Shown in pieces: positions 9,139-43,875 of a stretch of DNA of 64,000 nt. The DNA is taken from positions 96,001 to 160,000 of the forward strand of contig JBNKUM010000085.1 in assembly GCA_050298595.1 (NCBI GenBank), read 5' to 3'. The stretch is from Gammaproteobacteria bacterium (GTDB taxonomy: Bacteria > Pseudomonadota > Gammaproteobacteria > GCA-001735895). How positions within the stretch are numbered: the first letter of the stretch is position 1; each line of letters starts with the position of its first letter. The position numbers were made by a program, and so were the translations under genes. Under the pieces are notes generated by a model, which was not told the origin of the DNA, ran no database searches, and saw only the letters and a program-made list of their open reading frames with translations.

Positions 9139-9474
9139 ATGAAACTACAAACACTAAAAATAGTTAAACTTTCCGCCCTGGTACTGGTTGCCAGCCTTGC
9201 CGCCACTGTACCTGTTAAATCTATGGCACATGACAGCGGCCATATCAATGCTGAAATTCTGATAAATCTTTCACCATTACTACATACACATCAAGTTCAT
9301 CAATATGGACACAGCACTTATTACCCGCGTCAAATCGAACGTCATCATAAACACCATAAAGCCAGATACTATGATCGCAGATATCACCATGCAAGGCATC
9401 ATCAGCCAGAACGCATAGTGCGCAGCTATGACCGTTACTCGGATAATAAAATTATCCGCAAGCACTTTAAATAA
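9139..9474 (+). CDS. Small secreted His/Arg/Tyr-rich hypothetical protein
   Basis: Signal peptide ending SMA-H, then many His residues (RHHKHHK, YHHARHH); GGGAG RBS. Confidence 0.7.
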   Translation: MKLQTLKIVKLSALVLVASLAATVPVKSMAHDSGHINAEILINLSPLLHTHQVHQYGHSTYYPRQIERHHKHHKARYYDRRYHHARHHQPERIVRSYDRYSDNKIIRKHFK

Positions 9475-9491
9475 ATCCTGAAGAGGCGCGA

Positions 9492-10238
9492 GTGATGAAG
9501 ACTTTAAAAATTATACTGCTGTGTCTATTACCTTCGCTGGCATTTGCTGGCACTACAGAAACTGTATCGGTACGCAGTGTAGGCAAAATGATAACTGACG
9601 ATAGTATTAATCTTACTCAACAGCTTGAATTAAGCCCAACAATCAGCCTGCAGAAACCATCTTCATCGCAAGGCACTGATTTATTATCTCTGCGTCAAAG
9701 CAACCGAATAACAATCAGTTATTCAGATCCTGTCCAGTTTGACCTGTTCGATGCCTGGGTAGACCTGAGTGGAGACCTTGATCAGGATGGTTACTATCAT
9801 AATATCAAGGTCAGCTTTGATGCCGACGTCAATACACAAACCACCGAGGCTGTGTATGCAAAAATCTATCTCAGTTATCAGGGCGGCCCCTGGTTTCAAT
9901 TGAGTACAACAGATTTATTCGAAATTTACAGTAACTCCGCTGATGACAGTTTCGAGATACTCAATGAGCTGGAACAGGGTTTTGAACCTGGTGATTACGA
10001 AGTGTTGATAGAATTGCACAGCCTCTACCATAGCGGTATTGTGAGTCAGAGAATTGTGCAACTTGACCGCTCGGGTTATCTGATCACTCTGGAAGATTTT
10101 GATCACGATCAACCTGCTTATACTGTCGAGTATGTCGATAGTTATGGATATGCGGTTTCAGGAAGTTTTTCTATTACAGGATTATTACTGATAGGTTTGT
10201 TAGGCGTGATTAAATTTCGATTTTCAAACAGGCATTAA
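9492..10238 (+). CDS. Choice-of-anchor H-like secreted protein with a GlyGly-CTERM-like tail
   Basis: Signal peptide; DLDQDGYY..FDAD..VYAKIYLS..GGPW..DYEVLIEL pattern; C-terminal SGS, hydrophobic helix and basic end. Confidence 0.7.
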   Translation: MMKTLKIILLCLLPSLAFAGTTETVSVRSVGKMITDDSINLTQQLELSPTISLQKPSSSQGTDLLSLRQSNRITISYSDPVQFDLFDAWVDLSGDLDQDGYYHNIKVSFDADVNTQTTEAVYAKIYLSYQGGPWFQLSTTDLFEIYSNSADDSFEILNELEQGFEPGDYEVLIELHSLYHSGIVSQRIVQLDRSGYLITLEDFDHDQPAYTVEYVDSYGYAVSGSFSITGLLLIGLLGVIKFRFSNRH

Positions 10239-28788: not shown

Positions 28789-29583
28789 TTAAACGGCTAC
28801 CGGTGCCTTGATATGCTCATGACATTGATACCCCAGTAGCTCAAAATCATCGTATTTAAAATTATATATATCCTTAACATCTGGATTGAGACGCATTTCT
28901 GGTAATGGAAATGTGTCACGCGATAACTGCAGATCAGTTTGCTGCAGATGGTTAGAATACAGGTGTGCATCACCCAGAGTATGCACAAACTCTCCCACTT
29001 TTAAATCGCATACCTGCGCAACCATCATCAGCAACAAAGCATAAGAAGCTATATTAAACGGCACACCCAGGAAAATATCCGCACTTCGCTGATATAATTG
29101 GCAGGATAGTTTACCTTCGGCGATATAAAACTGAAAAAAGGCATGGCAGGGCGGTAAAGCCATATTGTCCAGCTCACCCACGTTCCATGCACTGACAATC
29201 AAACGTCTTGAATCTGGATTCGTCTTAATCTGTTCTATCAATTGAGAGATCTGATCTATATGCCGACCATCTGCCGACGTCCATGAGCGCCACTGGGAGC
29301 CATATACAGGCCCGAGATTACCTTCTTCATCCGCCCATTCGTCCCAGATACTGACGCCATTCTGTTTCAGATAATCGATATTAGTATCACCTTTCAGGAA
29401 CCAGAGTAGCTCATGAATAATCGACCGTAAGTGCAACTTTTTAGTCGTTACTACAGGAAAACCTTCTGCCAGGTCAAAACGCATCTGGTAACCAAATACC
29501 GAACGCGTACCGGTACCTGTGCGGTCTGTTTTTTTTACACCATGATCGCGTACATGACGCATGAGTTCGAGATATTGCTGCAT
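28789..29583 (-). CDS. thyA: Thymidylate synthase
   Basis: DRTGTGT, ELLWFL, ALPPCH and [14 protein letters not shown] motifs. Confidence 0.98.
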
Positions 29584-30550: not shown

Positions 30551-30913
30551 TCAGAAGAACAATACCAGCATCCAGGTGAGAACCACTATGGAAATAGCGA
30601 TAAATACCGCAGCCGAACCCATGTCCTTCGCACGGCCAGAAAGCTCATGCTGCTCTCCACCAAAACGGTCAACAACAGCTTCTATGGCAGAATTTAACAC
30701 TTCAACCAACAGTAATAGCAACACACTAACAACCAGCACTACCTTTTCAACGCCACCTTCTCCCAGATAAAGTCCGAGCGGGATCAGTACCAGAGCCAAC
30801 ATTAGCTCCTGACGAAATGCCTCTTCATTTTTATACGAAGCCTTCAACCCCTGCCAGGAGTAGACCGTTGCCTTGAGAATTCTATTGAGACCAGTATTGC
30901 CGCTGTCTGCCAT
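30551..30913 (-). CDS. dgkA: Diacylglycerol kinase
   Basis: EEAFRQE, EVLNSAIEAVVDR and AKDMGSAAV motifs. Confidence 0.96.
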   Translation of the reverse strand: MADSGNTGLNRILKATVYSWQGLKASYKNEEAFRQELMLALVLIPLGLYLGEGGVEKVVLVVSVLLLLLVEVLNSAIEAVVDRFGGEQHELSGRAKDMGSAAVFIAISIVVLTWMLVLFF

Positions 30914-30920
30914 GTTTATC

Positions 30921-32111
30921 CTACTGCAGTTGTGAGTTTCGGTGCTGCAGTATAAACATTTCTATCAATCGATGCAGTTGCTCAAAATTTAGCAGATGTA
31001 AGTTTGCGAGAGTTATTTTTAAATATTGATCTAGAAGCTGGATTCCCAATCTAATCGGCAGCTCACTCAGGCTGACCAATAACTGATCAATAAACTTGCT
31101 GTTAGCCATTTCATTTTCTATCAGTATCACACAGCGCCCTGCTGCCTCGGGTACCTCTTCAGTTTTTATACCCGCCTGATTAAATTGTTGCCTCAGGTAG
31201 CTAGCCATAACCATAGATTGAACAGCCTGTTGTTGAAGCGCAGAAAAACCTTGCATACGGAAATAAATCAAACAATGTAAGGTAGCCTGAGGATCTAGCG
31301 AAGCGTCGGATAGCATGCCAACCGATAAGGGATTTTCTGCCAGCGTTTTCCATTGATAGGTTTCATCATTCTTACCCGCCATAGGAACAGGCAGATAACC
31401 TGAAAATTTAGCATTCGATAAGACTGCATTGCAGCCTTTATCCAGGCCGCATATATAAGCCACATCCAGATGCAGGATGTCGGCCCTGAGCCATTCGGAA
31501 GCTTCACTTAGTGCCAATAGATATTGTCCTGATCCATCTAAATATAAAGGGATATCGAGTTGATCCAGCTTACCCCTGATGGACTCCAGATAGTTAACAT
31601 TATCATCAATACCTGGCAGTGACACCACCAGCGCAGCACAATCATCATTGAGAAAATCTGTAATATTTTCCGGATTTAAAAACCTTACTCTCAGATTCAA
31701 CTCTTTGGCCACATCAGCAACCTCATCCAGCCCCTTCATCAATACGATCTGATTTCTCTGCCGCCTGTTTTTCTGTTGATACTTAATCACCATAGACAGA
31801 CAAGCAAAGATAGCCATGCGGCGATTTAATGCTGCCAGTGATACAGAAGGGTAACCGGTAAATACAGCTATACGTTGTTGTAAATCAAAAATTGTCGATA
31901 GCACACCCTGTTGCCTCGAATCAGGAATCTTTGAGTTATAGCCTTCCGGACATATTTTATTAGCTATGCGAGATGCCGTTAATATTGCATTACTCTCTAG
32001 TGCAATCGACTGATACAACGCATTCATCTGCTCACCCGAATTCGAACAAAGCGATTCGATATCTTTTATGCCACGCAGTTGATCAGCAGAAATTTCAGGT
32101 AATAAATTCAT
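30921..32111 (-). CDS. Highly diverged glycine decarboxylase subunit 2 (GcvPB)-like protein lacking the PLP lysine motif
   Basis: Residual matches QQGVL..IFDLQ...FTG...VSL, LYLDGS, ADILHL, YLPVP and PLSVG. NLHKTF, PLGSCTMK, HGTNPAS and GGGGPG are absent. Confidence 0.7.
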   Translation of the reverse strand: MNLLPEISADQLRGIKDIESLCSNSGEQMNALYQSIALESNAILTASRIANKICPEGYNSKIPDSRQQGVLSTIFDLQQRIAVFTGYPSVSLAALNRRMAIFACLSMVIKYQQKNRRQRNQIVLMKGLDEVADVAKELNLRVRFLNPENITDFLNDDCAALVVSLPGIDDNVNYLESIRGKLDQLDIPLYLDGSGQYLLALSEASEWLRADILHLDVAYICGLDKGCNAVLSNAKFSGYLPVPMAGKNDETYQWKTLAENPLSVGMLSDASLDPQATLHCLIYFRMQGFSALQQQAVQSMVMASYLRQQFNQAGIKTEEVPEAAGRCVILIENEMANSKFIDQLLVSLSELPIRLGIQLLDQYLKITLANLHLLNFEQLHRLIEMFILQHRNSQLQ

Positions 32112-32141
32112 GAATTAGTCATCGCATCTAATGCCGATATT

Positions 32142-33425
32142 TCATGTGAATTTTGGTTTAACGGGGCAACCCGCAGTAGAAAGGTTTTTAACCACGGTAG
32201 CCATCTTTTGTACAAAGCGATCAATCATCGATAGATCGTGTTGATCAGTACAGTGAATCAATAAACAGTTCTCCAGCTCAGGGAATTCATCCCCCAAAGG
32301 GTAGCCAGCCAGGATATTGTGACCAGCCAGAATTTGCAGGGCACGGTTCAGGTCGATGCTATCGAAATGGATTACACACTCATGGGTAAACGCTGATTCA
32401 AACTTCAAGCTGACAGCAGGAATCTGGACTAATTTCTCTATCAGACTGGTTAAATTTTGCTGCGCCAGTTTACCTGCTTGCTGGATTTGATTAGCAGATT
32501 GGCAGGCGAAAAACGACTGGATAGTCATCAACTCGTTTATTAATAAGCCAGGCTCTATAGTTTTATCTAGCCTAGCTTTATCTACATTGGCTTTTTCTGA
32601 GTTAGCAGAATCAGCTCGCAGCGTAAGCGCATTACCTTTCCTGCTCAAAGGGAAGCCAAGGGGTTGTAAATCGCACAAGGTATAATCAATATATTCACTC
32701 AACTGGGCAGGAGGTTTCAGATAAGTAAGTGATAAAGCATCAGACAGCACGATGGTTTTAATGCCGTATTGTTGCGCCCAATCTGCAACGTCAGCGACAT
32801 TTTCCAGTACACCGAAAAAATTTGGATAAGGCAATAAGATAGCCAACAGGTCATCAGCAACCAACTCTTCTAGCTGTGACCGGGAAACCTGCCCTGTTAG
32901 CGTATCAAAACCGATAACTACAGTCTCTATACACTGGTATTTTAACTGTGTTCGTAGCGCCGAACGCAGGCCTGGCGGCATGCTTGCTGCGAGCAAAACC
33001 TTTTGTCTTATCCCTGTGCCAGCCTGCTGCTCATGACTATACAGCTCAAGCAGTAAATCTTTTAACACCTGGCTTAGACACTCACCCAGCACTTTAGCAT
33101 TTTCCATGCCTACGAGTTGCGCAAGTTTCGACTCGACCCCCTTTTTTATTTCCTGATAACTTTCCAGTGAGGCCCCACAAGCTGGGTATGGCATTAATCG
33201 AGAGATTGAATCCAGGGCTTGAAGCGCAACCGGTCTGTAGAAATCATAAGATCCTGCAGCAAGAAAGTTCATACCAGCTCCATCCCGAGACAATAGCTCA
33301 ACACAGGAAAGAACGAGATCTTTTTCTGTTTCAACAGGGCGAATTTGTTCTGCTGGCAACTTCAATCTGGGCAGTGATATACCGCTTTCAGATGCCAGCT
33401 TCTGCAGTTGATTTTCGGTTAACAT
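32142..33425 (-). CDS. Highly diverged glycine decarboxylase subunit 1 (GcvPA)-like protein
   Basis: FLAAGSYDFYRP, LVGMENA, PYPNFFG, DLQPLGFP and GYPLG.EFPEL.NCLLI match GcvPA. YTPYQPE and REQHIRR.KATSNIC are absent. Confidence 0.8.
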   Translation of the reverse strand: MLTENQLQKLASESGISLPRLKLPAEQIRPVETEKDLVLSCVELLSRDGAGMNFLAAGSYDFYRPVALQALDSISRLMPYPACGASLESYQEIKKGVESKLAQLVGMENAKVLGECLSQVLKDLLLELYSHEQQAGTGIRQKVLLAASMPPGLRSALRTQLKYQCIETVVIGFDTLTGQVSRSQLEELVADDLLAILLPYPNFFGVLENVADVADWAQQYGIKTIVLSDALSLTYLKPPAQLSEYIDYTLCDLQPLGFPLSRKGNALTLRADSANSEKANVDKARLDKTIEPGLLINELMTIQSFFACQSANQIQQAGKLAQQNLTSLIEKLVQIPAVSLKFESAFTHECVIHFDSIDLNRALQILAGHNILAGYPLGDEFPELENCLLIHCTDQHDLSMIDRFVQKMATVVKNLSTAGCPVKPKFT

Positions 33426-33462
33426 AAAGGCATATATTGTCAGTGTGTTAAGAAGCAAACAT

Positions 33463-33486
33463 AAAAGCCCTGAAAACAGGGCTTTT
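33463..33486 (-). terminator. Intrinsic terminator after tpsA
   Basis: AAAAGCCCTG-AAAA-CAGGGCTTTT. Confidence 0.75.
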
Positions 33487-33517: not shown

Positions 33518-36500
33518 CTACTTACACACCAGCCTGGGAGCGCGCTTTTTCTCGTCATCTTCTTCATCCTCAGTTTCAATACTGGCAACCTTGTCAACAA
33601 AGCTCATTGTCTTAACCATCTGTTGATGATCTAGCTCTCCACTATCAAACAACGTTTCAAGCAGATTCGAAACTTTATCCATATCTTCATTAGAAACCAC
33701 AACCGTATCTTTAAATGTAAACGTCCCCTGATTGATTATTCTGAAAGGATTATTGATTTGTAAAATAGAAGTATCGGGAGAAAACCAGTTAACCGTCCCG
33801 GTAGGTGTGATCAGCCAGTCAGTACCTAAAACTCCACTAACCAAATCTACGCGACCAGAAGTTGTCAAACCTGTACCATTAATAGTTCCCGTATCCCACA
33901 ACATGTCGCCCGCATAGTTTAGGTTATTAGCTTTAAGCGTCCCTCCTACAAGTTCTATCCTGGCAATTTGGAGTGGCGTATTGGCAACTAAAGACGACCC
34001 TGATGAAATCGATATACTTCCTCCACCGGTCAAGCTTGACATAGCATTAACAGTTAACTCAGTGTTATTTAGAGCTAAAACTTTACCTTGCTGCACCTGT
34101 ATTGATGAAGCCTGGACAGCAACTAACAGAGGATTTTGTGTATTGCTACCTATAAAACTACCCCCATCGACGATTACGGATGTAGATGCAGAAATCACCA
34201 GATTCCCTTCAGCCTGAATTTCGCTACTACCCGACATCGTCACGCTCGTTGGCAAGACAGGAATGTTCTGCACTCTGGAAACCACTCCATCAACCAACTC
34301 CCAGTTTATGGTCGTATCGTAAACAAGGGGATGAATATCTACAGCAAACTCAGAAGTATTGTTTAAGGATAAAAGTCCTGAACCTAAAAACTGGGCGTTA
34401 CTGCTGGCTGATGACAGGGAGACACCATCTGATAAGGAAAGTTGTGCGCCATTCGCCCAGGACATAATGCCTTTATTGTCTATAGAGCCTGTACCGGTAA
34501 AGACATTAGTTCCACTACTGGCATCTATCGCAAACAATGCATTGTTCACCAGATTGCCATTTATCTGAAAGGGAGTACCTACACTGGTTTGAATTTCACC
34601 CCAGTTAACAGCGTCAGCAGACAGGGTGCCCTGATCAAGTTTAAGCGTTGCACCTAAATTATATAAAACACCTGTACCCGTTCTGGACACTAAGGCATCG
34701 GATGCAGAAATGGCTAACCCACCACTACCATTGAACGGATCAAGTATAAAAGCATTGCCACTTATATCAAGGCTACCACCAGCGCCTACTTTGATCTGGC
34801 CATGCGCCTGAATTCCTCTAACAGCAGCAGTAGAGGTGATATCAACAACTGGGGTAGTTGTTCCATCAATAAATACATCCGTGCTTGAATCAGGCGCCAC
34901 CGTCGCAGTAAGCCCAGTAGAGAGATCCATCCAGTTATCTAGATCACTCCAACTGGTTGGAGAAGTAGATGATAACCCCGTCCATTGATAGATATTACTG
35001 GTATCTATGCTACCAATTGTATAACTGGCCGTATCAGCAATAACTGATCCATAATCAACAGTGCCTGCTGAAGTTGTCGCAATAGGGTCAACAATGGTGT
35101 CAAAGCCACTCCCTGAAAAACAACCAGTACCCGTGCAACCAACTACCGATACAGTGTTGCTAGAACTATCAGCAGCTAGTACAGCTGAGCTATCTTGCCA
35201 GTTCAAAATCAAATCACCACCATTAATAGCAACAGTATTCGCACTCACATAACTTGACACCATGCCATCTGATGCCGCCAGGACTGAATATAAGCCCCCA
35301 GAATTAAACACTAGATCACCATTAATAGTTAATGTGCCTGGGCTTGTTGAGTCATCTCCACCAGCGATCACGCCACCATTCACGGTTACACTGCTGTTTA
35401 TAGCAGCCCATCCAGAACTACTGAGACCTGAACCAGGTCCGAGCTCAAGCACTCCTCCAGTTAAAGTCAGCGTATTGTTATCCTGTATGTCGATCCATCC
35501 TGGATTTTTGAAATTTATAAACTGAGTATCTATAGTCGAGATAGAAGTAGTAAAGCTATTAAGATTAATATTCCCCTTATTATAAAACTGCCCTGTACCT
35601 GTGATACTGGCATTCTCCATATTGATATCACCGCCATTGGTCAACATTGAAGTGGCGTCTAAATCTAGTGTTGTAAACTGCATATCGATCGAATGTCCCT
35701 GCTGCACATTCCAGCTGGTATTTTGTAGTTTTAGAGCACCGCCTCCGGTTATTGATGTATTACCATTTACCATTAAGCTACCAGCATTGGTAGCAAGATC
35801 TACATTAAAACTTGCGGTTGAAGCAAACGTTTTAAAGTTAACCAGACCTGAGCCATCATTATCTATGTCTGGATTCAATATAAGGTTTAATGCACCGGTG
35901 CCTGTTGCAGAGATAGTGAGATTACTAGCAGCTGCATCAAAAATAATGTCATTGTGTGCATTTAACGTAAGTGAAACAGCGCTACTCGATAGAGAATTGA
36001 TATCCGCCAGGATGGTAATATCACCTGCTTGACTATTACCCCCAGCTGTAGCTGTTGAAACAGTGACATTTGTGCCTGCGTTGAGAGCAGCTTCTATAGA
36101 TGCGACACTCAAATAAGCACTGTCACCCGTTGAAATAAAATCAGGGTCACCTGTGATGAGAGCATCTGCAGTCGAACTAATTGTTATATTATTTGGATCA
36201 ATCAACCACTCACCTGCATTACCATTAAGTGCCGAGGCATCCGGCACCGATGTAATATCCAGATAGTGTTTACCAGAGGTTTCTATAAACCCACCATCAC
36301 CACTAACCGCACCACCACGCGCAGTTACTTCACCATGTACGTGCACATCTTTCTCTGCAAATACGATGACTTTGCCTCCATTTCCTGTCGTGTCGGCATC
36401 AGCATTGACACTGGCACCGGCAGCTATCGTGGTTGAGCTTGCATTGTGGATCTCGGGATTCAACCCCTGCTGATCACCACCGATAAGAATCTCTCCACCA

Positions 36501-37384
36501 GCAGTATCACCAGATGCATTGATATTCGCACCCTCATCAATGTTGACTGTATCGCCAAGTATCTCGATATACCCGCCCTGAATACCTGAGGCGTCTACGC
36601 GGCCACTAACCTGATTGGTAGCTTTGGCAACCAGGCTGATACTTCCATCAGCATTCTGCACCAGACCTCCAGCACGAATTGAACCACTGTGCTTCAAGGC
36701 CCCTGCAAACAAACTGGCACTACCCTGATTCGCTAAAATTTTACCCAGATTGGTCACCGTGTTTTCACTTCCAGTAACTTCAAACTGTATGGCCGGATTC
36801 TCCAGACTGCTGATGGTAATCGATTGCCCTGCCGCCAGTATGATATTTCCATTATCGACTTCGATAACGCCACCGTTTTCGATATTCGGTGCGATCAATA
36901 CAATATTGCCATTATCTCCTGCATGGATATAGCCCTGATTGCTAATTCCAGCTGAGCTATCACCTTCAAACTTTAGATTTCCATTCAGGTAATCACTATC
37001 TGTTATATTCAATGTGGAAGCGAAAAAACCGGCTGTATTGATTTGCGCACCAGCCCCAACAAGGAGGCCATGTTGATTAATCAGAAATACCTTACCATTT
37101 GAATTCAAATTACCCAGCAACTGGCTAGGGTTATTGGATATCACGCGATTTAATACGGAACTCGCCGCAGAGGGCTGAATAAAATTGGTGGTTTGTCCGG
37201 CGCCGATATTGAACGATTGCCAGTTGATGATGGCATTATTACTGTTCGTAACATTTAAAACATTTACACTGGGATTAGAAAAGGTAGCCGAGCCGTGAAC
37301 AACCTGCCCACCCGCAGGGTTGGCGTTGGCCATTTGACTACTCAGAATCAGACTGATGGTAAAAGCTAGCGTATTGTATTTCAT
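33518..37384 (-). CDS. Two-partner secretion exoprotein (TpsA, filamentous haemagglutinin N-terminal domain)
   Basis: Signal peptide then ANPAGGQVV.G; IINWQSFNI, VLNRV, LINQHG, GGFIETSG and WLIDP motifs; S/T/G/N-rich beta-helix body. Confidence 0.9.
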   Translation of the reverse strand: MKYNTLAFTISLILSSQMANANPAGGQVVHGSATFSNPSVNVLNVTNSNNAIINWQSFNIGAGQTTNFIQPSAASSVLNRVISNNPSQLLGNLNSNGKVFLINQHGLLVGAGAQINTAGFFASTLNITDSDYLNGNLKFEGDSSAGISNQGYIHAGDNGNIVLIAPNIENGGVIEVDNGNIILAAGQSITISSLENPAIQFEVTGSENTVTNLGKILANQGSASLFAGALKHSGSIRAGGLVQNADGSISLVAKATNQVSGRVDASGIQGGYIEILGDTVNIDEGANINASGDTAGGEILIGGDQQGLNPEIHNASSTTIAAGASVNADADTTGNGGKVIVFAEKDVHVHGEVTARGGAVSGDGGFIETSGKHYLDITSVPDASALNGNAGEWLIDPNNITISSTADALITGDPDFISTGDSAYLSVASIEAALNAGTNVTVSTATAGGNSQAGDITILADINSLSSSAVSLTLNAHNDIIFDAAASNLTISATGTGALNLILNPDIDNDGSGLVNFKTFASTASFNVDLATNAGSLMVNGNTSITGGGALKLQNTSWNVQQGHSIDMQFTTLDLDATSMLTNGGDINMENASITGTGQFYNKGNINLNSFTTSISTIDTQFINFKNPGWIDIQDNNTLTLTGGVLELGPGSGLSSSGWAAINSSVTVNGGVIAGGDDSTSPGTLTINGDLVFNSGGLYSVLAASDGMVSSYVSANTVAINGGDLILNWQDSSAVLAADSSSNTVSVVGCTGTGCFSGSGFDTIVDPIATTSAGTVDYGSVIADTASYTIGSIDTSNIYQWTGLSSTSPTSWSDLDNWMDLSTGLTATVAPDSSTDVFIDGTTTPVVDITSTAAVRGIQAHGQIKVGAGGSLDISGNAFILDPFNGSGGLAISASDALVSRTGTGVLYNLGATLKLDQGTLSADAVNWGEIQTSVGTPFQINGNLVNNALFAIDASSGTNVFTGTGSIDNKGIMSWANGAQLSLSDGVSLSSASSNAQFLGSGLLSLNNTSEFAVDIHPLVYDTTINWELVDGVVSRVQNIPVLPTSVTMSGSSEIQAEGNLVISASTSVIVDGGSFIGSNTQNPLLVAVQASSIQVQQGKVLALNNTELTVNAMSSLTGGGSISISSGSSLVANTPLQIARIELVGGTLKANNLNYAGDMLWDTGTINGTGLTTSGRVDLVSGVLGTDWLITPTGTVNWFSPDTSILQINNPFRIINQGTFTFKDTVVVSNEDMDKVSNLLETLFDSGELDHQQMVKTMSFVDKVASIETEDEEDDEKKRAPRLVCK

Positions 37385-37412
37385 AATGATGGCTCCTCTG
37401 GTCTACAGTAAA

Positions 37413-38879
37413 TTACTGCAGACGGCATTCAAACTCCTCTTTATCACTACCTTTGGCACCAAACAAATTAATCTTTTTCTGCATTTTCAGTGACAACTGT
37501 GAAGGCACAGGGATCTTGTCAAACTTCTGGAAAGGCGGAACAAAGTTCAGGCGTATGGTCTTCCCGGCAAGCCCTGCTAAACCAGCCTCACCCTTACCCA
37601 GATTAACAACACTGCCATCGACACCCTCAACCGCAACATCACCGTCTCGCACATTAACATATAACCCCGGCTCAATATTCTGTCTATCTGAGCCACTAAA
37701 CAGATCATCTCTAATTGTGATTCGATCAGGTCTGGGCGCATTACCCATGGTACGAAGATGGACCGGAAAATCAGGTATGATCACCGGTTTGGTGAATCCA
37801 TTTTTGACAAATGCTGCCTTACCATTTTCCAGTAGCATTTTGCCGCCTTCAAATTGCAACTCTATGGCACCACTCCACACCCTGGCATACATGCCACTGC
37901 CGCTTAAGGCATAAGCTGGTTTCAAAAAGAATTGCAACAGTTTTGCAACCACCGTTTCACTCAGTGGGTCCTGCAATGCCGTGTTGTCCACACAATCACC
38001 ATCACAGGCCAGGTCAAAGCCAGTACCACGGATACCTATGGTTGCTGTTGGCGTTGCCACTCGATAGGAGCGCTCATTCAAGCGCCCAATAGCGCCAGTG
38101 ATCAGACGCAAGCCACCTCGAATAAACCTTAAAAATGCATTATTCTCTGCTGGCACTTCAGGCTTATAGTAATGTTCTTCAATCTTAAAGGCTGAAGACG
38201 GACTCATCGTGATACGGCTTTTATCGTTAAACACTAAAACAGCAAACGATTTAATTCCGGTTTGTATTTGATCAAGCTCGTATACTGCTGCACCAGTCGA
38301 TAAGGGGCGTGATTTATTATTAGCGTCCAGTGCACTGGCCTTACCCTGCATTAAAGCAATACGGCCGATAACCTTTGATTCATTCTGCGAATTCTTATTC
38401 AGTGCTCGATTTTCTTCATCACACTCAGCACTTTCACACAGTCGGGCGTCAAATTCAGTACCCCGAATACCGATGGTGGCTACTCGAGTATTGATACGAA
38501 AAGCACTGGGGCGACTTTTACTGATGAGACCTGTTATGGCTCGAAAGCCGCCTCGAATCAAATTCATCAATGCGCTTTCACTACCCTTAGTCGTATTTAC
38601 GTCCTCAATTTTAAACGTTGTATTAGGTCGAAGCGTCATGCGCGTACCGTCTTCCAGTTTGATCACGGCAAAGCTGCTAGTGCCTGTATTCAAAGTTTCA
38701 CCTTTATACAATGACCCACCTTTGCCCAGAATCTGGAGAGCATCATTGCCAACCTGCCCTGTTAGCACTCCTCGGGTATAAGCCACCTCACCTACTTCAG
38801 TCGCGGCAAATACAGAACCTTGCAGGCACAGTAAAAATGAGAAAAACAAACTACGGTGAATCATGCTTTTTCTATCCAT
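37413..38879 (-). CDS. Exported protein with tandem FecR-like domains
   Basis: Signal peptide; two repeats with GGFRAITG/GGLRLITG and ATIGIRGT(E/G)FD, each followed by a Cys pair. Confidence 0.8.
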   Translation of the reverse strand: MDRKSMIHRSLFFSFLLCLQGSVFAATEVGEVAYTRGVLTGQVGNDALQILGKGGSLYKGETLNTGTSSFAVIKLEDGTRMTLRPNTTFKIEDVNTTKGSESALMNLIRGGFRAITGLISKSRPSAFRINTRVATIGIRGTEFDARLCESAECDEENRALNKNSQNESKVIGRIALMQGKASALDANNKSRPLSTGAAVYELDQIQTGIKSFAVLVFNDKSRITMSPSSAFKIEEHYYKPEVPAENNAFLRFIRGGLRLITGAIGRLNERSYRVATPTATIGIRGTGFDLACDGDCVDNTALQDPLSETVVAKLLQFFLKPAYALSGSGMYARVWSGAIELQFEGGKMLLENGKAAFVKNGFTKPVIIPDFPVHLRTMGNAPRPDRITIRDDLFSGSDRQNIEPGLYVNVRDGDVAVEGVDGSVVNLGKGEAGLAGLAGKTIRLNFVPPFQKFDKIPVPSQLSLKMQKKINLFGAKGSDKEEFECRLQ

Positions 38880-38887
38880 AGCCTGCC

Positions 38888-40435
38888 TCAGAATCGGTAA
38901 ATCAAGTTAAAGTGGGCCTTATCGTCACCATCCTGGTTGATCGTGGCATCAGGACCACCACCTTTATTGATGACAGCATAATCAAGCGCAACACTTAGCT
39001 GTTCTTTCCAGCTCCAGCGTAACCCGACTCCATAGGAAGAAAGATCGTAATCTCCACTGTCGTTAAATTTGACCTTAGCCTGATCAATAAAAACCAGATA
39101 GCGCATATTTGCAAAGGCCGGGGTCCAGATTTCAAAAGAAGTTTGATAGCCGCTATCACCGATTACGGAACGTTCTTCAAAACCACGCAGCGTAGAACTA
39201 CCACCCACACCAAATTGTTCGCCTGAAATCAGTAAATCACTACTACTTTGCCCACTTAAACCCGCGTGCAAGAGCCAGTCTTTAGAGAAAATCAGATCAT
39301 AAGCAAGGTTGTATCGTATAGCAGTCCAGTCATTTTTGGCGCCTGTACGGAGCAGTTCATAATCCTCATCACTATTGTTACTGCCAGAATCAATATTCAA
39401 ATCATAGAAAAAATCACCACTAATGGAGCTTGATTTGGCTGTATAGGTAAAACCATAACCCAGTTCTAGAGGAAAACTCCCTACATCGGCATTTGATACG
39501 TTCCCATTAATATCAATCTCATTCTCGAAGAGTTTATTTTGAAACCCAACAGACCACTGGTGATTAAAGTTGGTATCGGTCAACATCGGACGCGAATAAG
39601 TAAAACCAAATACCGAGCCCTTTCCGGTAATAGCTACACCTCCACCCACTTCACCAGAATTGACCTCCGAATCTGAAAATATAAAATCCAGATTGGCACC
39701 ATGTGAATATAGCGGTATATGGTAGCTCAGACCAAACTGATTGGTGGCATCCGGGTCTTCTGGAGCTACGGTCAAGGTTGCGGTTATCGTGTGATCGCGG
39801 TTGAATAGATTGCCATTCTGATATCCCAGAGTACTGCGGAATTCACTGGTATCTTTGCTACCAGTATTATCCAGCGTCAGGAAAAAAAGCTGCGGGTTAC
39901 GATCATTGACGGTTAAATTAGCATCAATGGTATCTCCCTCGTCACCTTCCTTAAACTTAAGCACCATATTCTTGGAAGCGTGATTATTAGCAAGTTTCAA
40001 AGAACGCGACAATTCCCTGGTATTTGGTGTACTACCAACACTTAACTCAGGAAGAGAGCTACGGATATTCCGTTCATTAAAGAACTTATTACCCGATATA
40101 TTTATCGCCCCGATAGTAAAATGAATAACATTCAACTCGACGGTACCAGAGATTAATTGCTGAGGAGGCAGGGACACTCGGTGAAAACTATAACCCTGTT
40201 TAATAATTTCCTGTTCCAGGGCATCAGCCGCAGCAGATAACCCATCCAGACCATAATGCTCACCTAGATAGGATTGCAGTACTTTTTGCGCTTTGTCCGC
40301 TATTGGGTTATCACCAGTGACGTCAAAGCTAGAAACCGTAAAACGCATTGGCGTATAAGTAGTTTGGGCATACCCTACCATTGGCAACAGAGTAACAAAA
40401 AATAAAACAAAGGCACTTCCCTGAGGTATTCGCAT
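38888..40435 (-). CDS. ShlB/FhaC/HecB family outer-membrane transporter (TpsB)
   Basis: POTRA region (V.LPPQ), LDNTGS, EQFGVGG.STLRGF (VRGY-like loop) and terminal aromatic ..YRF. The start could be 40495. Confidence 0.9.
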   Translation of the reverse strand: MRIPQGSAFVLFFVTLLPMVGYAQTTYTPMRFTVSSFDVTGDNPIADKAQKVLQSYLGEHYGLDGLSAAADALEQEIIKQGYSFHRVSLPPQQLISGTVELNVIHFTIGAINISGNKFFNERNIRSSLPELSVGSTPNTRELSRSLKLANNHASKNMVLKFKEGDEGDTIDANLTVNDRNPQLFFLTLDNTGSKDTSEFRSTLGYQNGNLFNRDHTITATLTVAPEDPDATNQFGLSYHIPLYSHGANLDFIFSDSEVNSGEVGGGVAITGKGSVFGFTYSRPMLTDTNFNHQWSVGFQNKLFENEIDINGNVSNADVGSFPLELGYGFTYTAKSSSISGDFFYDLNIDSGSNNSDEDYELLRTGAKNDWTAIRYNLAYDLIFSKDWLLHAGLSGQSSSDLLISGEQFGVGGSSTLRGFEERSVIGDSGYQTSFEIWTPAFANMRYLVFIDQAKVKFNDSGDYDLSSYGVGLRWSWKEQLSVALDYAVINKGGGPDATINQDGDDKAHFNLIYRF

Positions 40436-40958
40436 GACTATAAATTCTTCATTCTCGAATTTAAAATCATATCGACTGGTGATTACATTGTCCATGATAA
40501 ACTGGCTCAGGACATGCTATTTAGAGTACTTTCTATTAACTTGGACTTAATAAAGGATACTCTGTCTAGAATTATCATACCCACATGACAAATCTAAATA
40601 GTAAAACCATTTTGCTGCGCATAAACATGCTTTAACGCAGTAATAAACATACTTTGCCATAACTGTTTCGGCTTTGCGCTGACTCTCAAAACCTCTCAAA
40701 CACTTCGATTGATACAGGTAATCACCAGCATCCAATAATAGCCCAGCCTGCAGATCCAGAGCCTGAAACATTTTTACCAATAACAGCGATAGCGCTATAG
40801 AAGGAACATCTAGTGCACTTTTCCAGGATCCTGTCGGATTTAGGGTGAATCTACTGCGGAAAAGGCATTTTGGCCAACAATCCGATCATTTTCGTTAAAT
40901 AGGCTCACTATTCGCCTCAAATGATCGAAATATTTCGACTCAAAATACCGTTCCTTCG

Positions 40959-43542: not shown

Positions 43543-43671
43543 CCCACCAATTAACTCTAATTATGCGCTTGCCCCGCAAATTTTATAAATTTAATTTGAC
43601 ACTCAGGGTCATAAAAAAAATCTACAACATAGCCGGTGCAATTATTTTAGAAGTGTCGTATAGTTTATTAA

Positions 43672-43851
43672 ACCAACTGCGGTGTTAGTTAGCTTCTATA
43701 AGATCCTTGAGCCTAATTATCAACTTCGGGGCGATCAGTGTCATACTGGTGTGCATGCCCGAGATTTTTCGGGAAGCCTGATGGATGCCCTCTTGCCCCA
43801 CCTGAACCTTCTGGTTCAAGGTTGATAGTCTGCGACGGCATCGCGGTTGGT
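43672..43851 (+). ncRNA. ssrS: 6S RNA
   Basis: Lies between zapA and the 5-FTHF cyclo-ligase gene; about 180 nt; pairing ends ACCAACTGCGGTGT..GCATCGCGGTTGGT; TCCTTGAGCC and CTGAACC..GGTTCAAG elements. Confidence 0.9.
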
Positions 43852-43875
43852 ATTTTCTCCTTCTAATAATAAAGT

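Follow-up and report, generated by a model that had tools for sequence, protein, structure and literature searches.

Two adjacent genes lying upstream of dgkA in a gammaproteobacterial genome are genuine but remote homologues of GcvPA and GcvPB, the alpha and beta subunits of the split glycine decarboxylase (P-protein), and are predicted to be unable to decarboxylate glycine. The two genes, hereafter A and B, are encoded on the minus strand of a stretch of 64,000 nt (the window), i.e., positions 96,001–160,000 (forward strand) of contig JBNKUM010000085.1 (GCA_050298595.1, Gammaproteobacteria bacterium). According to our analyses, they form a genus-restricted pseudoenzyme pair, in which catalysis was most likely lost after the split enzyme had become redundant, while the substitution patterns point to moderate purifying selection on both genes in part of one uncultured genus, and thus not to neutral junk. 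Below, we examine the homology and origin of the pair, the constraint acting on it and the role that it may have retained.

In profile searches, A passes the threshold of the Pfam domain GDC-P (PF02347; 26 bits), with 48.8 bits over residues 42–273, while B falls below it (13.3 bits). Neither protein reaches the cutoff of the corresponding NCBIfam equivalog, A scoring 121.7 bits against 364 for GcvPA (NF001696) and B 42.5 bits against 441 for GcvPB (NF003346). When profiles are built from the families themselves, the A profile matches the alpha subunit of Thermus (1wyt_A, E 2.8e-15) and the B profile its beta subunit (1wyt_B, E 1.3e-9). Orthologues of A amount to 23 clusters (33–100% identity), and the B profile, searched against 1.84 billion representative proteins, retrieves 15 clusters at E<=1e-30, canonical enzymes only appearing from about E 1e-18 upward; a search of the ESM Atlas returned only GcvPA and GcvPB look-alikes. 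The scaffold motifs on which a first-pass annotation of this DNA had based its assignment of two adjacent uninterrupted open reading frames (ORFs) are all where it had placed them, i.e., NFLAAGSYDFYRP, YPNFFG, DLQPLGFP, GYPLGDEFPEL and AGCPVKPKFT in A, and LYLDG, DILHLDVAYICG and YLPVP in B.

In fold-type I enzymes, canonical residues contact pyridoxal 5'-phosphate (PLP) or the substrate. The first-pass annotation had considered the catalytic motifs of both subunits to be gone, which holds for nearly all of them: among the 87 GcvPA columns that are invariant in seven canonical proteins, 15 persist in 14 or more of the 16 stripped A proteins, and among the 88 GcvPB columns conserved in at least nine of ten canonical proteins, 10 do so in 20 or more of the 23 stripped B proteins. 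Still, HGTN and the lysine are substituted and the glycine-rich loop is only deleted in part. In A, the columns of the blocks YTPYQ.E..QG and REQHIRR.KATSNICTN are mostly kept in zero to three of the 16 stripped proteins (at most seven), and several are deleted. In B, the GSCTMKY block is deleted in the subfamily of the window and absent in the wider set, the HGTN block is replaced, and the TPHGGGGPG loop has lost four columns in 23/23 stripped proteins, the rest being largely substituted. The HMMER alignment to 1wyt_B sets HLNLHK over LHLDlaY, which brings Tyr219 to the position of the Schiff-base (PLP) lysine and leaves the glycine-rich loop in a gap; across the 23 stripped B proteins, this position is occupied by Y, H, L, Q, A or M, with a lysine only in canonical enzymes (0/23 stripped). 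Moreover, about 60 N-terminal and 40 C-terminal residues of canonical GcvPB are absent from B.

The possibility that another lysine compensates, which the first-pass annotation had proposed to check, finds no family-wide candidate. Lys225 (LDKG), six residues downstream of the former lysine position, was considered and rejected, as it is invariant only in the 12-member subfamily of the window; in the 11 proteins of the wider family, N, P, S, A, Q, H, E or G stands in its place. Within the aligned cofactor-site stretch of B, the wider family shares no conserved lysine. The stripped B family has nevertheless acquired residues of its own (D216, L371 and L374 in 23/23, C221 in 19/23 and C280 in most members), and these shared derived residues fit a single origin followed by a new constraint.

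Where the pair comes from can be read from its genomic context. Searching one genome per species with motifs of the C-terminal tail of A, 43 stretches matched, of which nine encoded relatives; these nine loci all belong to uncultured Gammaproteobacteria (loci are numbered L and genomes G hereafter). The order A-B-dgkA is found in the window and in all eight related loci long enough to judge, including L010, in which the enzyme is canonical. There, the operon reads tandem glycine riboswitch-gcvT-gcvH-gcvPA-tpx (Redoxin/Tpx)-gcvPB-dgkA; its GcvPA has YTPYQAE and REQHIRRSKATSNIC and ends in GCPVKPKFD, and its GcvPB has GSCTMK, HGTNPA, HMNLHKTF and HGGGGPG. A canonical GcvPA ending in PCPVKPKFA is encoded in a gcvPA-tpx-gcvPB arrangement in another family of the class (G317, locus L018), while G010, from a sister genus within the family of the window, has a canonical gcvT-gcvH-gcvPA-tpx-gcvPB without the tail. 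Traces of this arrangement are visible in relatives of the window: locus L006 has a degenerate tpx-like ORF (9289–9792) between stripped A and B (Redoxin score of 61 bits versus 106 for the L010 copy) and the congener G078 has an intact tpx between tpsA and dgkA. In the genus of the window, a two-partner secretion cluster, tpsB-fecR-tpsA, now occupies the place that gcvT-gcvH hold in related genera. In a maximum-likelihood tree, the 16 stripped A proteins fall on one branch (support 100/100) and are joined with the degenerate GcvPA (PA') of a sister genus, g3 (100/100), the tail-bearing canonical GcvPA being the nearest canonical sequences; the tree is unrooted and has long internal branches leading to the stripped proteins, whose grouping may partly reflect attraction, but synteny leads to the same conclusion. 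It shows that the pair descends, in place, from gcvT-gcvH-gcvPA-tpx-gcvPB-dgkA, an operon still present in canonical form in related genomes. The adjacency to dgkA and the CPVKPKF ending are therefore ancestral and not new. The first-pass annotation had correctly located the stop codon of B 7 nt before the ATG of dgkA, with which B is probably co-transcribed, yet this link is inherited from a canonical gcvPB-dgkA junction, as seen in L010, and gives no indication of a new function; likewise, the tail that it took for atypical has its CPVKPKF part in common with the end of the canonical GcvPA of L010 and L018.

Redundancy is suggested by the distribution of the fused enzyme. The genome of the window encodes a fused gcvP (977-aa open frame) on another contig, preceded by two ORFs of the size of gcvH and gcvT, of which GcvH was confirmed. 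The other genomes with a stripped pair all have a fused gcvP as well (8/8, 1466–1502 bits against a cutoff of 859), as do G066 and G072, which carry the degenerate pair of genus g3, and G073. By contrast, the canonical split pair of G010 occurs without a fused gcvP, and in G007, the genome of L010, the split pair is canonical while the fused gcvP (C4:2163-4908) lies in at least five fragments, interrupted by TGA stops and shifts of frame. Altogether, a degenerate pair is accompanied by an intact fused gcvP in 11/11 genomes and a canonical split pair lacks one in 2/2 (G007 and G010), both counts being drawn from related, hence non-independent, genomes. As every split pair that co-occurs with an intact fused gcvP is degenerate, the pair was most likely redundant before it lost catalysis.

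Selection was estimated from nonsynonymous (dN) and synonymous (dS) substitutions per site, dS being saturated in most genome pairs and usable only between the window and the closest genome (L004) and, roughly, between L009 and L011. For window versus L004, dN/dS is 0.25 for A (dN 0.047, dS 0.189) and 0.31 for B (dN 0.051, dS 0.165), compared to 0.02–0.21 for six neighbouring genes, and the nonsynonymous share lies below the neutral expectation (binomial test; A, p 6e-10; B, p 7e-7); for L009 versus L011, dN/dS of B is 0.22. Moreover, at K = 0.18 substitutions per site, a neutrally evolving copy of A would have escaped stop codons with a probability of 2e-5, and one of B with a probability of 4e-5. 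These ratios, together with the lack of frameshifts and a tail that stays invariant while its codons vary, bear out the earlier claim of selection as opposed to random decay. Purifying selection is thus found to act on a catalytically stripped homologue, as befits a pseudoenzyme.

This constraint is concentrated in the C-terminal domain and tail of the alpha subunit. The tail is the most conserved part of either protein: 16 of the 21 positions from residue 407 to 427 are invariant or nearly so, versus 1/60 in residues 271–330, and its 14-residue, cysteine-containing stretch, KNLSTAGCPVKPKF, is identical in eight genomes in spite of differences at third codon positions. At the DNA level, a pattern for CPVKPKF occurs in two of 401 sampled genomes of the class, i.e., the genome of the window and G317, where it lies at the end of the canonical GcvPA. 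A short MAFFT alignment provides a weak lead by pairing the tail with the alpha-beta linker in the fused GcvP of the same genome (QPGASFEDKF versus QPGCPVKPKF).

Structure prediction agrees with the assignment to the P-protein. The AlphaFold2 model of A (predicted local distance difference test, pLDDT, 83.4; predicted template modelling score, pTM, 0.81) has the fold of a P-protein alpha subunit, its best Foldseek matches being GcvPA chains (9a73_A, E 1.8e-27, template modelling score 0.72; 1wyt_A, E 8.4e-24, score 0.70); the last helix spans residues 398–418 and residues 420–427 form a low-confidence extended coil. The monomer model of B, computed from a 12-row alignment, is poor (pLDDT 57) and was not used for fold searches. 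When modelled together, A and B yield an interaction score (interaction prediction score from aligned errors, ipSAE) of 0.87 (median of three runs), versus 0.00 for the best of three controls; at least 81% of the contacts agree between runs, with a partner pLDDT of at least 83. Among solved complexes, 116 of 157 attain the mark applied to this score, as against 2 of 215 mismatched pairs, and passing it may reflect memory of solved P-protein structures. The predicted complex lends support to binding rather than proof of it, and an A–B heterodimer probably persists. A clustering of conserved columns at the predicted interface was considered and rejected, as these columns are depleted there in A (odds ratio 0.35, p 0.005) and neutral in B (0.89, not significant).

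The distribution of the pair was examined across the taxonomic order, which comprises 79 genomes in one family and four genera. Orthologues, for which the first-pass annotation had suggested looking, are indeed present in related genomes: A and B occur together without internal stop in nine of the 14 genomes of the genus of the window (two copies being cut by contig ends) and are absent together from the other five congeners, except for a 54-aa remnant of B in G083.

Taken together, these results lead us to the following scenario. As sequence and comparative data show, the split gcvPA/gcvPB, most likely redundant beside the fused gcvP, no longer has the PLP lysine, its cofactor loops or the active-site blocks of the alpha subunit. 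The stripped proteins would retain the fold of P-protein subunits and their association into an alpha'-beta' heterodimer, with a non-catalytic accessory role resting mainly on the C-terminal domain of the alpha subunit and on its invariant, cysteine-containing tail. The most plausible activity would be docking or binding kept from the P-protein, e.g., holding the beta' partner or another component of the glycine-cleavage system. On balance, we find such a non-catalytic binding or docking role, both accessory and dispensable, rather probable.

Several observations weigh against this scenario. Between the window and L005, A and B are only 52% and 41% identical, versus 81–93% for six neighbouring genes, and the two genes evolve about 5–10 times faster than their neighbours. 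The pair has been deleted in the congeners G073, G076 and G078, the first two of which display the end of tpsA, then about 0.5 kb, then dgkA; G083 has lost A and 85% of B, with 54 codons of B remaining before dgkA; and the pair was not found in G079, where the result comes from genome-wide searches alone, the contig being too short for the locus to be judged. Four of these assemblies (G076, G078, G079 and G083) are only 74–86% complete, and the dgkA locus was inspected in G073, G076, G078 and G083. Because close relatives deleted it cleanly, the pair is dispensable. In genus g3, the degenerate pair is found in only two of 61 genomes (G066 and G072; loci L013 and L014), in the layout gcvT-gcvH-PA' (396–399 aa)-PB'-dgkA, with a glycine riboswitch ahead in L014; there, PB' is truncated to 271–297 aa, a TGA stop falls within the A2 match of G066, and the tail has changed in G072 (ACPVAPKF) and is missing from G066. 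Moreover, B has almost no invariant residues across the wider family beyond those common to canonical enzymes, conserved columns are not enriched at the predicted A–B interface, and the tail is not placed in the confident part of that interface.

At face value, part of this evidence might be explained by a pair without any function, i.e., a slowly dying relic whose frames stay open only since they lie upstream of dgkA in one transcript, a premature stop lowering the expression of dgkA by polarity or by uncoupling its translation. The 7-nt spacer between B and dgkA and the lack of terminator-like sites between A, B and dgkA in our scan would suit such an explanation, as would the clean deletions in congeners that keep dgkA, the very fast evolution, the unremarkable interface and the truncated homologues of genus g3, with the stop codon in G066. 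Yet selection for open frames alone would bring dN/dS near 1, not to the 0.25 and 0.31 observed with such low p-values; neither would it maintain a 14-residue tail in eight genomes despite synonymous variation, fix derived residues in 23/23 family members, or have A and B kept or lost together. We therefore hold a pure relic to be unlikely. Even more improbable is an attachment of the pair to tpsB-fecR-tpsA, as an accessory or immunity-like part whose fast evolution would stem from conflict. Such a role would account for the high divergence of the pair and for its position directly downstream of tpsA, both in the window and in the related loci with a long enough upstream flank, but ancestry already explains the latter, since the pair adjoined dgkA before the tps genes arrived (L010, G010, L013 and L014). 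Furthermore, a terminator-like hairpin lies between tpsA and A, and G073, G076, G078 and G083 have kept the end of tpsA while losing the pair; in these four genomes, the C-terminal 55–70 residues of TpsA match at 40–66% identity and are thus conserved, not variable.

Two other readings involve the cysteines. A new catalytic or redox activity could have arisen at the former active site, using C221 and C280 of B, His/Asp/Tyr residues, possibly the tail cysteine, or non-covalently bound PLP. C221, two residues past the old lysine position, replaces a Phe, C280, beside a canonically conserved arginine position, replaces an Ala, and D216 replaces an Asn; in the subfamily of the window, H214, D216, Y219, C221, K225 and C280 are invariant and H279 nearly so, the alpha tail has an invariant Cys, and the ancestral operon included a thiol peroxidase gene. 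Against this, the conservation of H214, Y219, K225 and H279 does not extend to the wider family, only 17/23 proteins have kept the Asp of the canonical Y.DGAN block, and deletions have removed the N-terminal GSCTMK block along with four columns of the glycine-rich loop, so that we judge a new activity to be quite doubtful. A thiol-based switch or prozyme-like regulator, in which the tail and C221/C280 of the dead pair would sense redox state, bind the H-protein or the fused GcvP and modulate flux, seems to us just as speculative; redox sensing would then be a legacy of the thiol peroxidase gene of the ancestral operon. As for the link with LbpA proteins and the sHdr pathway, put forward by the first-pass annotation, it receives no backing from Pfam GCV_H, which finds one true GcvH, beside the fused gcvP, and a 22-bit hit inside a 600-aa open frame, but no LbpA-like protein in the genome; the sHdr genes themselves were not searched.

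The features of the locus are listed in Table 1. On the minus strand, the order is tpsB, FecR-domain gene, tpsA, A, B, dgkA, lgt, thyA, apaG, methyltransferase and metallophosphoesterase; as the first-pass annotation had noted, neither gcvT nor gcvH is among the annotated neighbours of the pair, either on the tpsA side or on the dgkA side, and no glycine riboswitch was found in the window. The start of A was taken as the ATG at 33425, even though the ORF listing runs on to a TTG at 33458, because homologues begin at this ATG and the hairpin overlaps the upstream TTG. This hairpin, which probably separates the tpsA transcript from that of A-B-dgkA, is a single consensus match, and as shuffled sequences give a mean of 2.7 such matches, its weight comes from its intergenic position only.

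Table 1. Coordinates of the A–B pair, of its notable segments and of the neighbouring features in the window.
Feature	Position	Strand	Remarks
A-like gene (stripped GcvPA descendant)	32142..33425	-	427 aa from ATG, no internal stop
B-like gene (stripped GcvPB descendant)	30921..32111	-	396 aa, no internal stop
C-terminal tail of A, KMATVVKNLSTAGCPVKPKFT	32145..32207	-	residues 407-427
Former PLP-lysine region of B, DILHLDVAYICGLDKG	31434..31481	-	residues 211-226, Tyr219 at Schiff-base lysine position
dgkA (diacylglycerol kinase)	30551..30913	-	Pfam DAGK_prokar 7.1e-34
Terminator-like hairpin between tpsA stop and A start	33463..33486	-	10-pair stem, 5 GC pairs, then T-rich run
tpsA (TPS domain, 1288 aa)	33518-37384	-	directly upstream of A
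FecR-domain gene	37413-38879	-	between tpsB and tpsA
tpsB (ShlB/POTRA)	38888-40495	-	upstream of pair

A few additional observations concern this region and its relatives. The two-partner secretion cluster tpsB-fecR-tpsA spans positions 33518–40495 (minus strand), and the open frame matching tpsA is 1498–1534 aa long in L004–L006 and exceeds 2600 aa, up to the edge of the locus, in L009 and L012. Next to lgt, thyA occurs in a 264-aa form in the window (28789–29583), L004–L006 and L012, and in a 283-aa form in L008, L009 and L011; these two thymidylate synthases are only about 36% identical, which is suggestive of replacement by a non-orthologous or highly divergent gene where the position itself is conserved. 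A full-length 6S RNA (SsrS; Rfam RF00013, 101.3 bits) is located at 43671–43853 (plus strand). Regarding tpx, the ORF of L006 has kept its first Cys motif (PSVDSYIC), while ARFKKVEK stands in place of the FCGAE-type second Cys region, and the ORF is apparently decaying along with its neighbours. Finally, the subtype of canonical split operon with tpx between gcvPA and gcvPB is represented by three examples (L010:6058-11732, L018:127-3020 and L024:2-3794), in two of which GcvPA ends in CPVKPKF; the presence of tpx within a canonical split operon suggests an undescribed redox link to the P-protein.

Whatever its role, the pair belongs to a natural series in which a two-subunit enzyme dies after becoming redundant, all stages being found within one bacterial family: the canonical operon (G010), the intact stripped pair under selection (nine genomes of the genus of the window), the truncated pair (G066 and G072), the 54-aa remnant (G083) and the clean deletion (G073, G076 and G078). 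Outside of the family, G007 exemplifies the reverse outcome, with a living split enzyme and a fused gene broken up. The series also singles out the 14-residue Cys tail of GcvPA, which is constrained far more strongly than the remainder of the protein and part of which exists in canonical enzymes. It further calls for caution with annotations, as some sources name members of the family “glycine dehydrogenase subunit 1” or “subunit 2”. Should a regulatory role be borne out, the pair would exemplify, in bacteria, a PLP pseudoenzyme made of two subunits; otherwise, it would amount to an ordinary, well-documented case of relaxed selection. Our full-text literature search found no report of catalytically dead GcvPA/GcvPB pairs.

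Among known systems, the closest is the split GcvPA/GcvPB itself, i.e., the alpha2beta2 P-protein of Thermus thermophilus (1WYT/1WYU/1WYV), with which the pair shares ancestry, fold, gene order and predicted pairing, its locus being positionally orthologous to the canonical gcvPA-tpx-gcvPB-dgkA. It differs by the lack of the PLP lysine, of GSCTMK, HGTN and GGGGPG, of YTPYQ.E and REQHIRR.KATSNIC, as well as of gcvT, gcvH and the glycine riboswitch. The PA'/PB' pair of genus g3 (G066 and G072) has the same origin, has likewise lost YTPYQ, REQHIRR and the PLP lysine, also lies upstream of dgkA and co-occurs with a fused gcvP in the genome; unlike the pair of the window, it still stands behind gcvT-gcvH, its PB' is truncated and its tail is altered or lost. 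As for redox control of the P-protein in Synechocystis, a passage of PMC7259800 concerns a flexible loop that can be either disulfide-bridged or open. Finally, the trypanosomatid prozymes of S-adenosylmethionine decarboxylase and deoxyhypusine synthase (PMC5201418, PMC3663545) likewise combine a preserved fold, lost catalytic residues, an active counterpart in the genome and purifying selection. These prozymes are described as activating their active partner, and that of deoxyhypusine synthase as essential. By contrast, the genus of the window can do without its pair, in which the two subunits of a heteromer died together.

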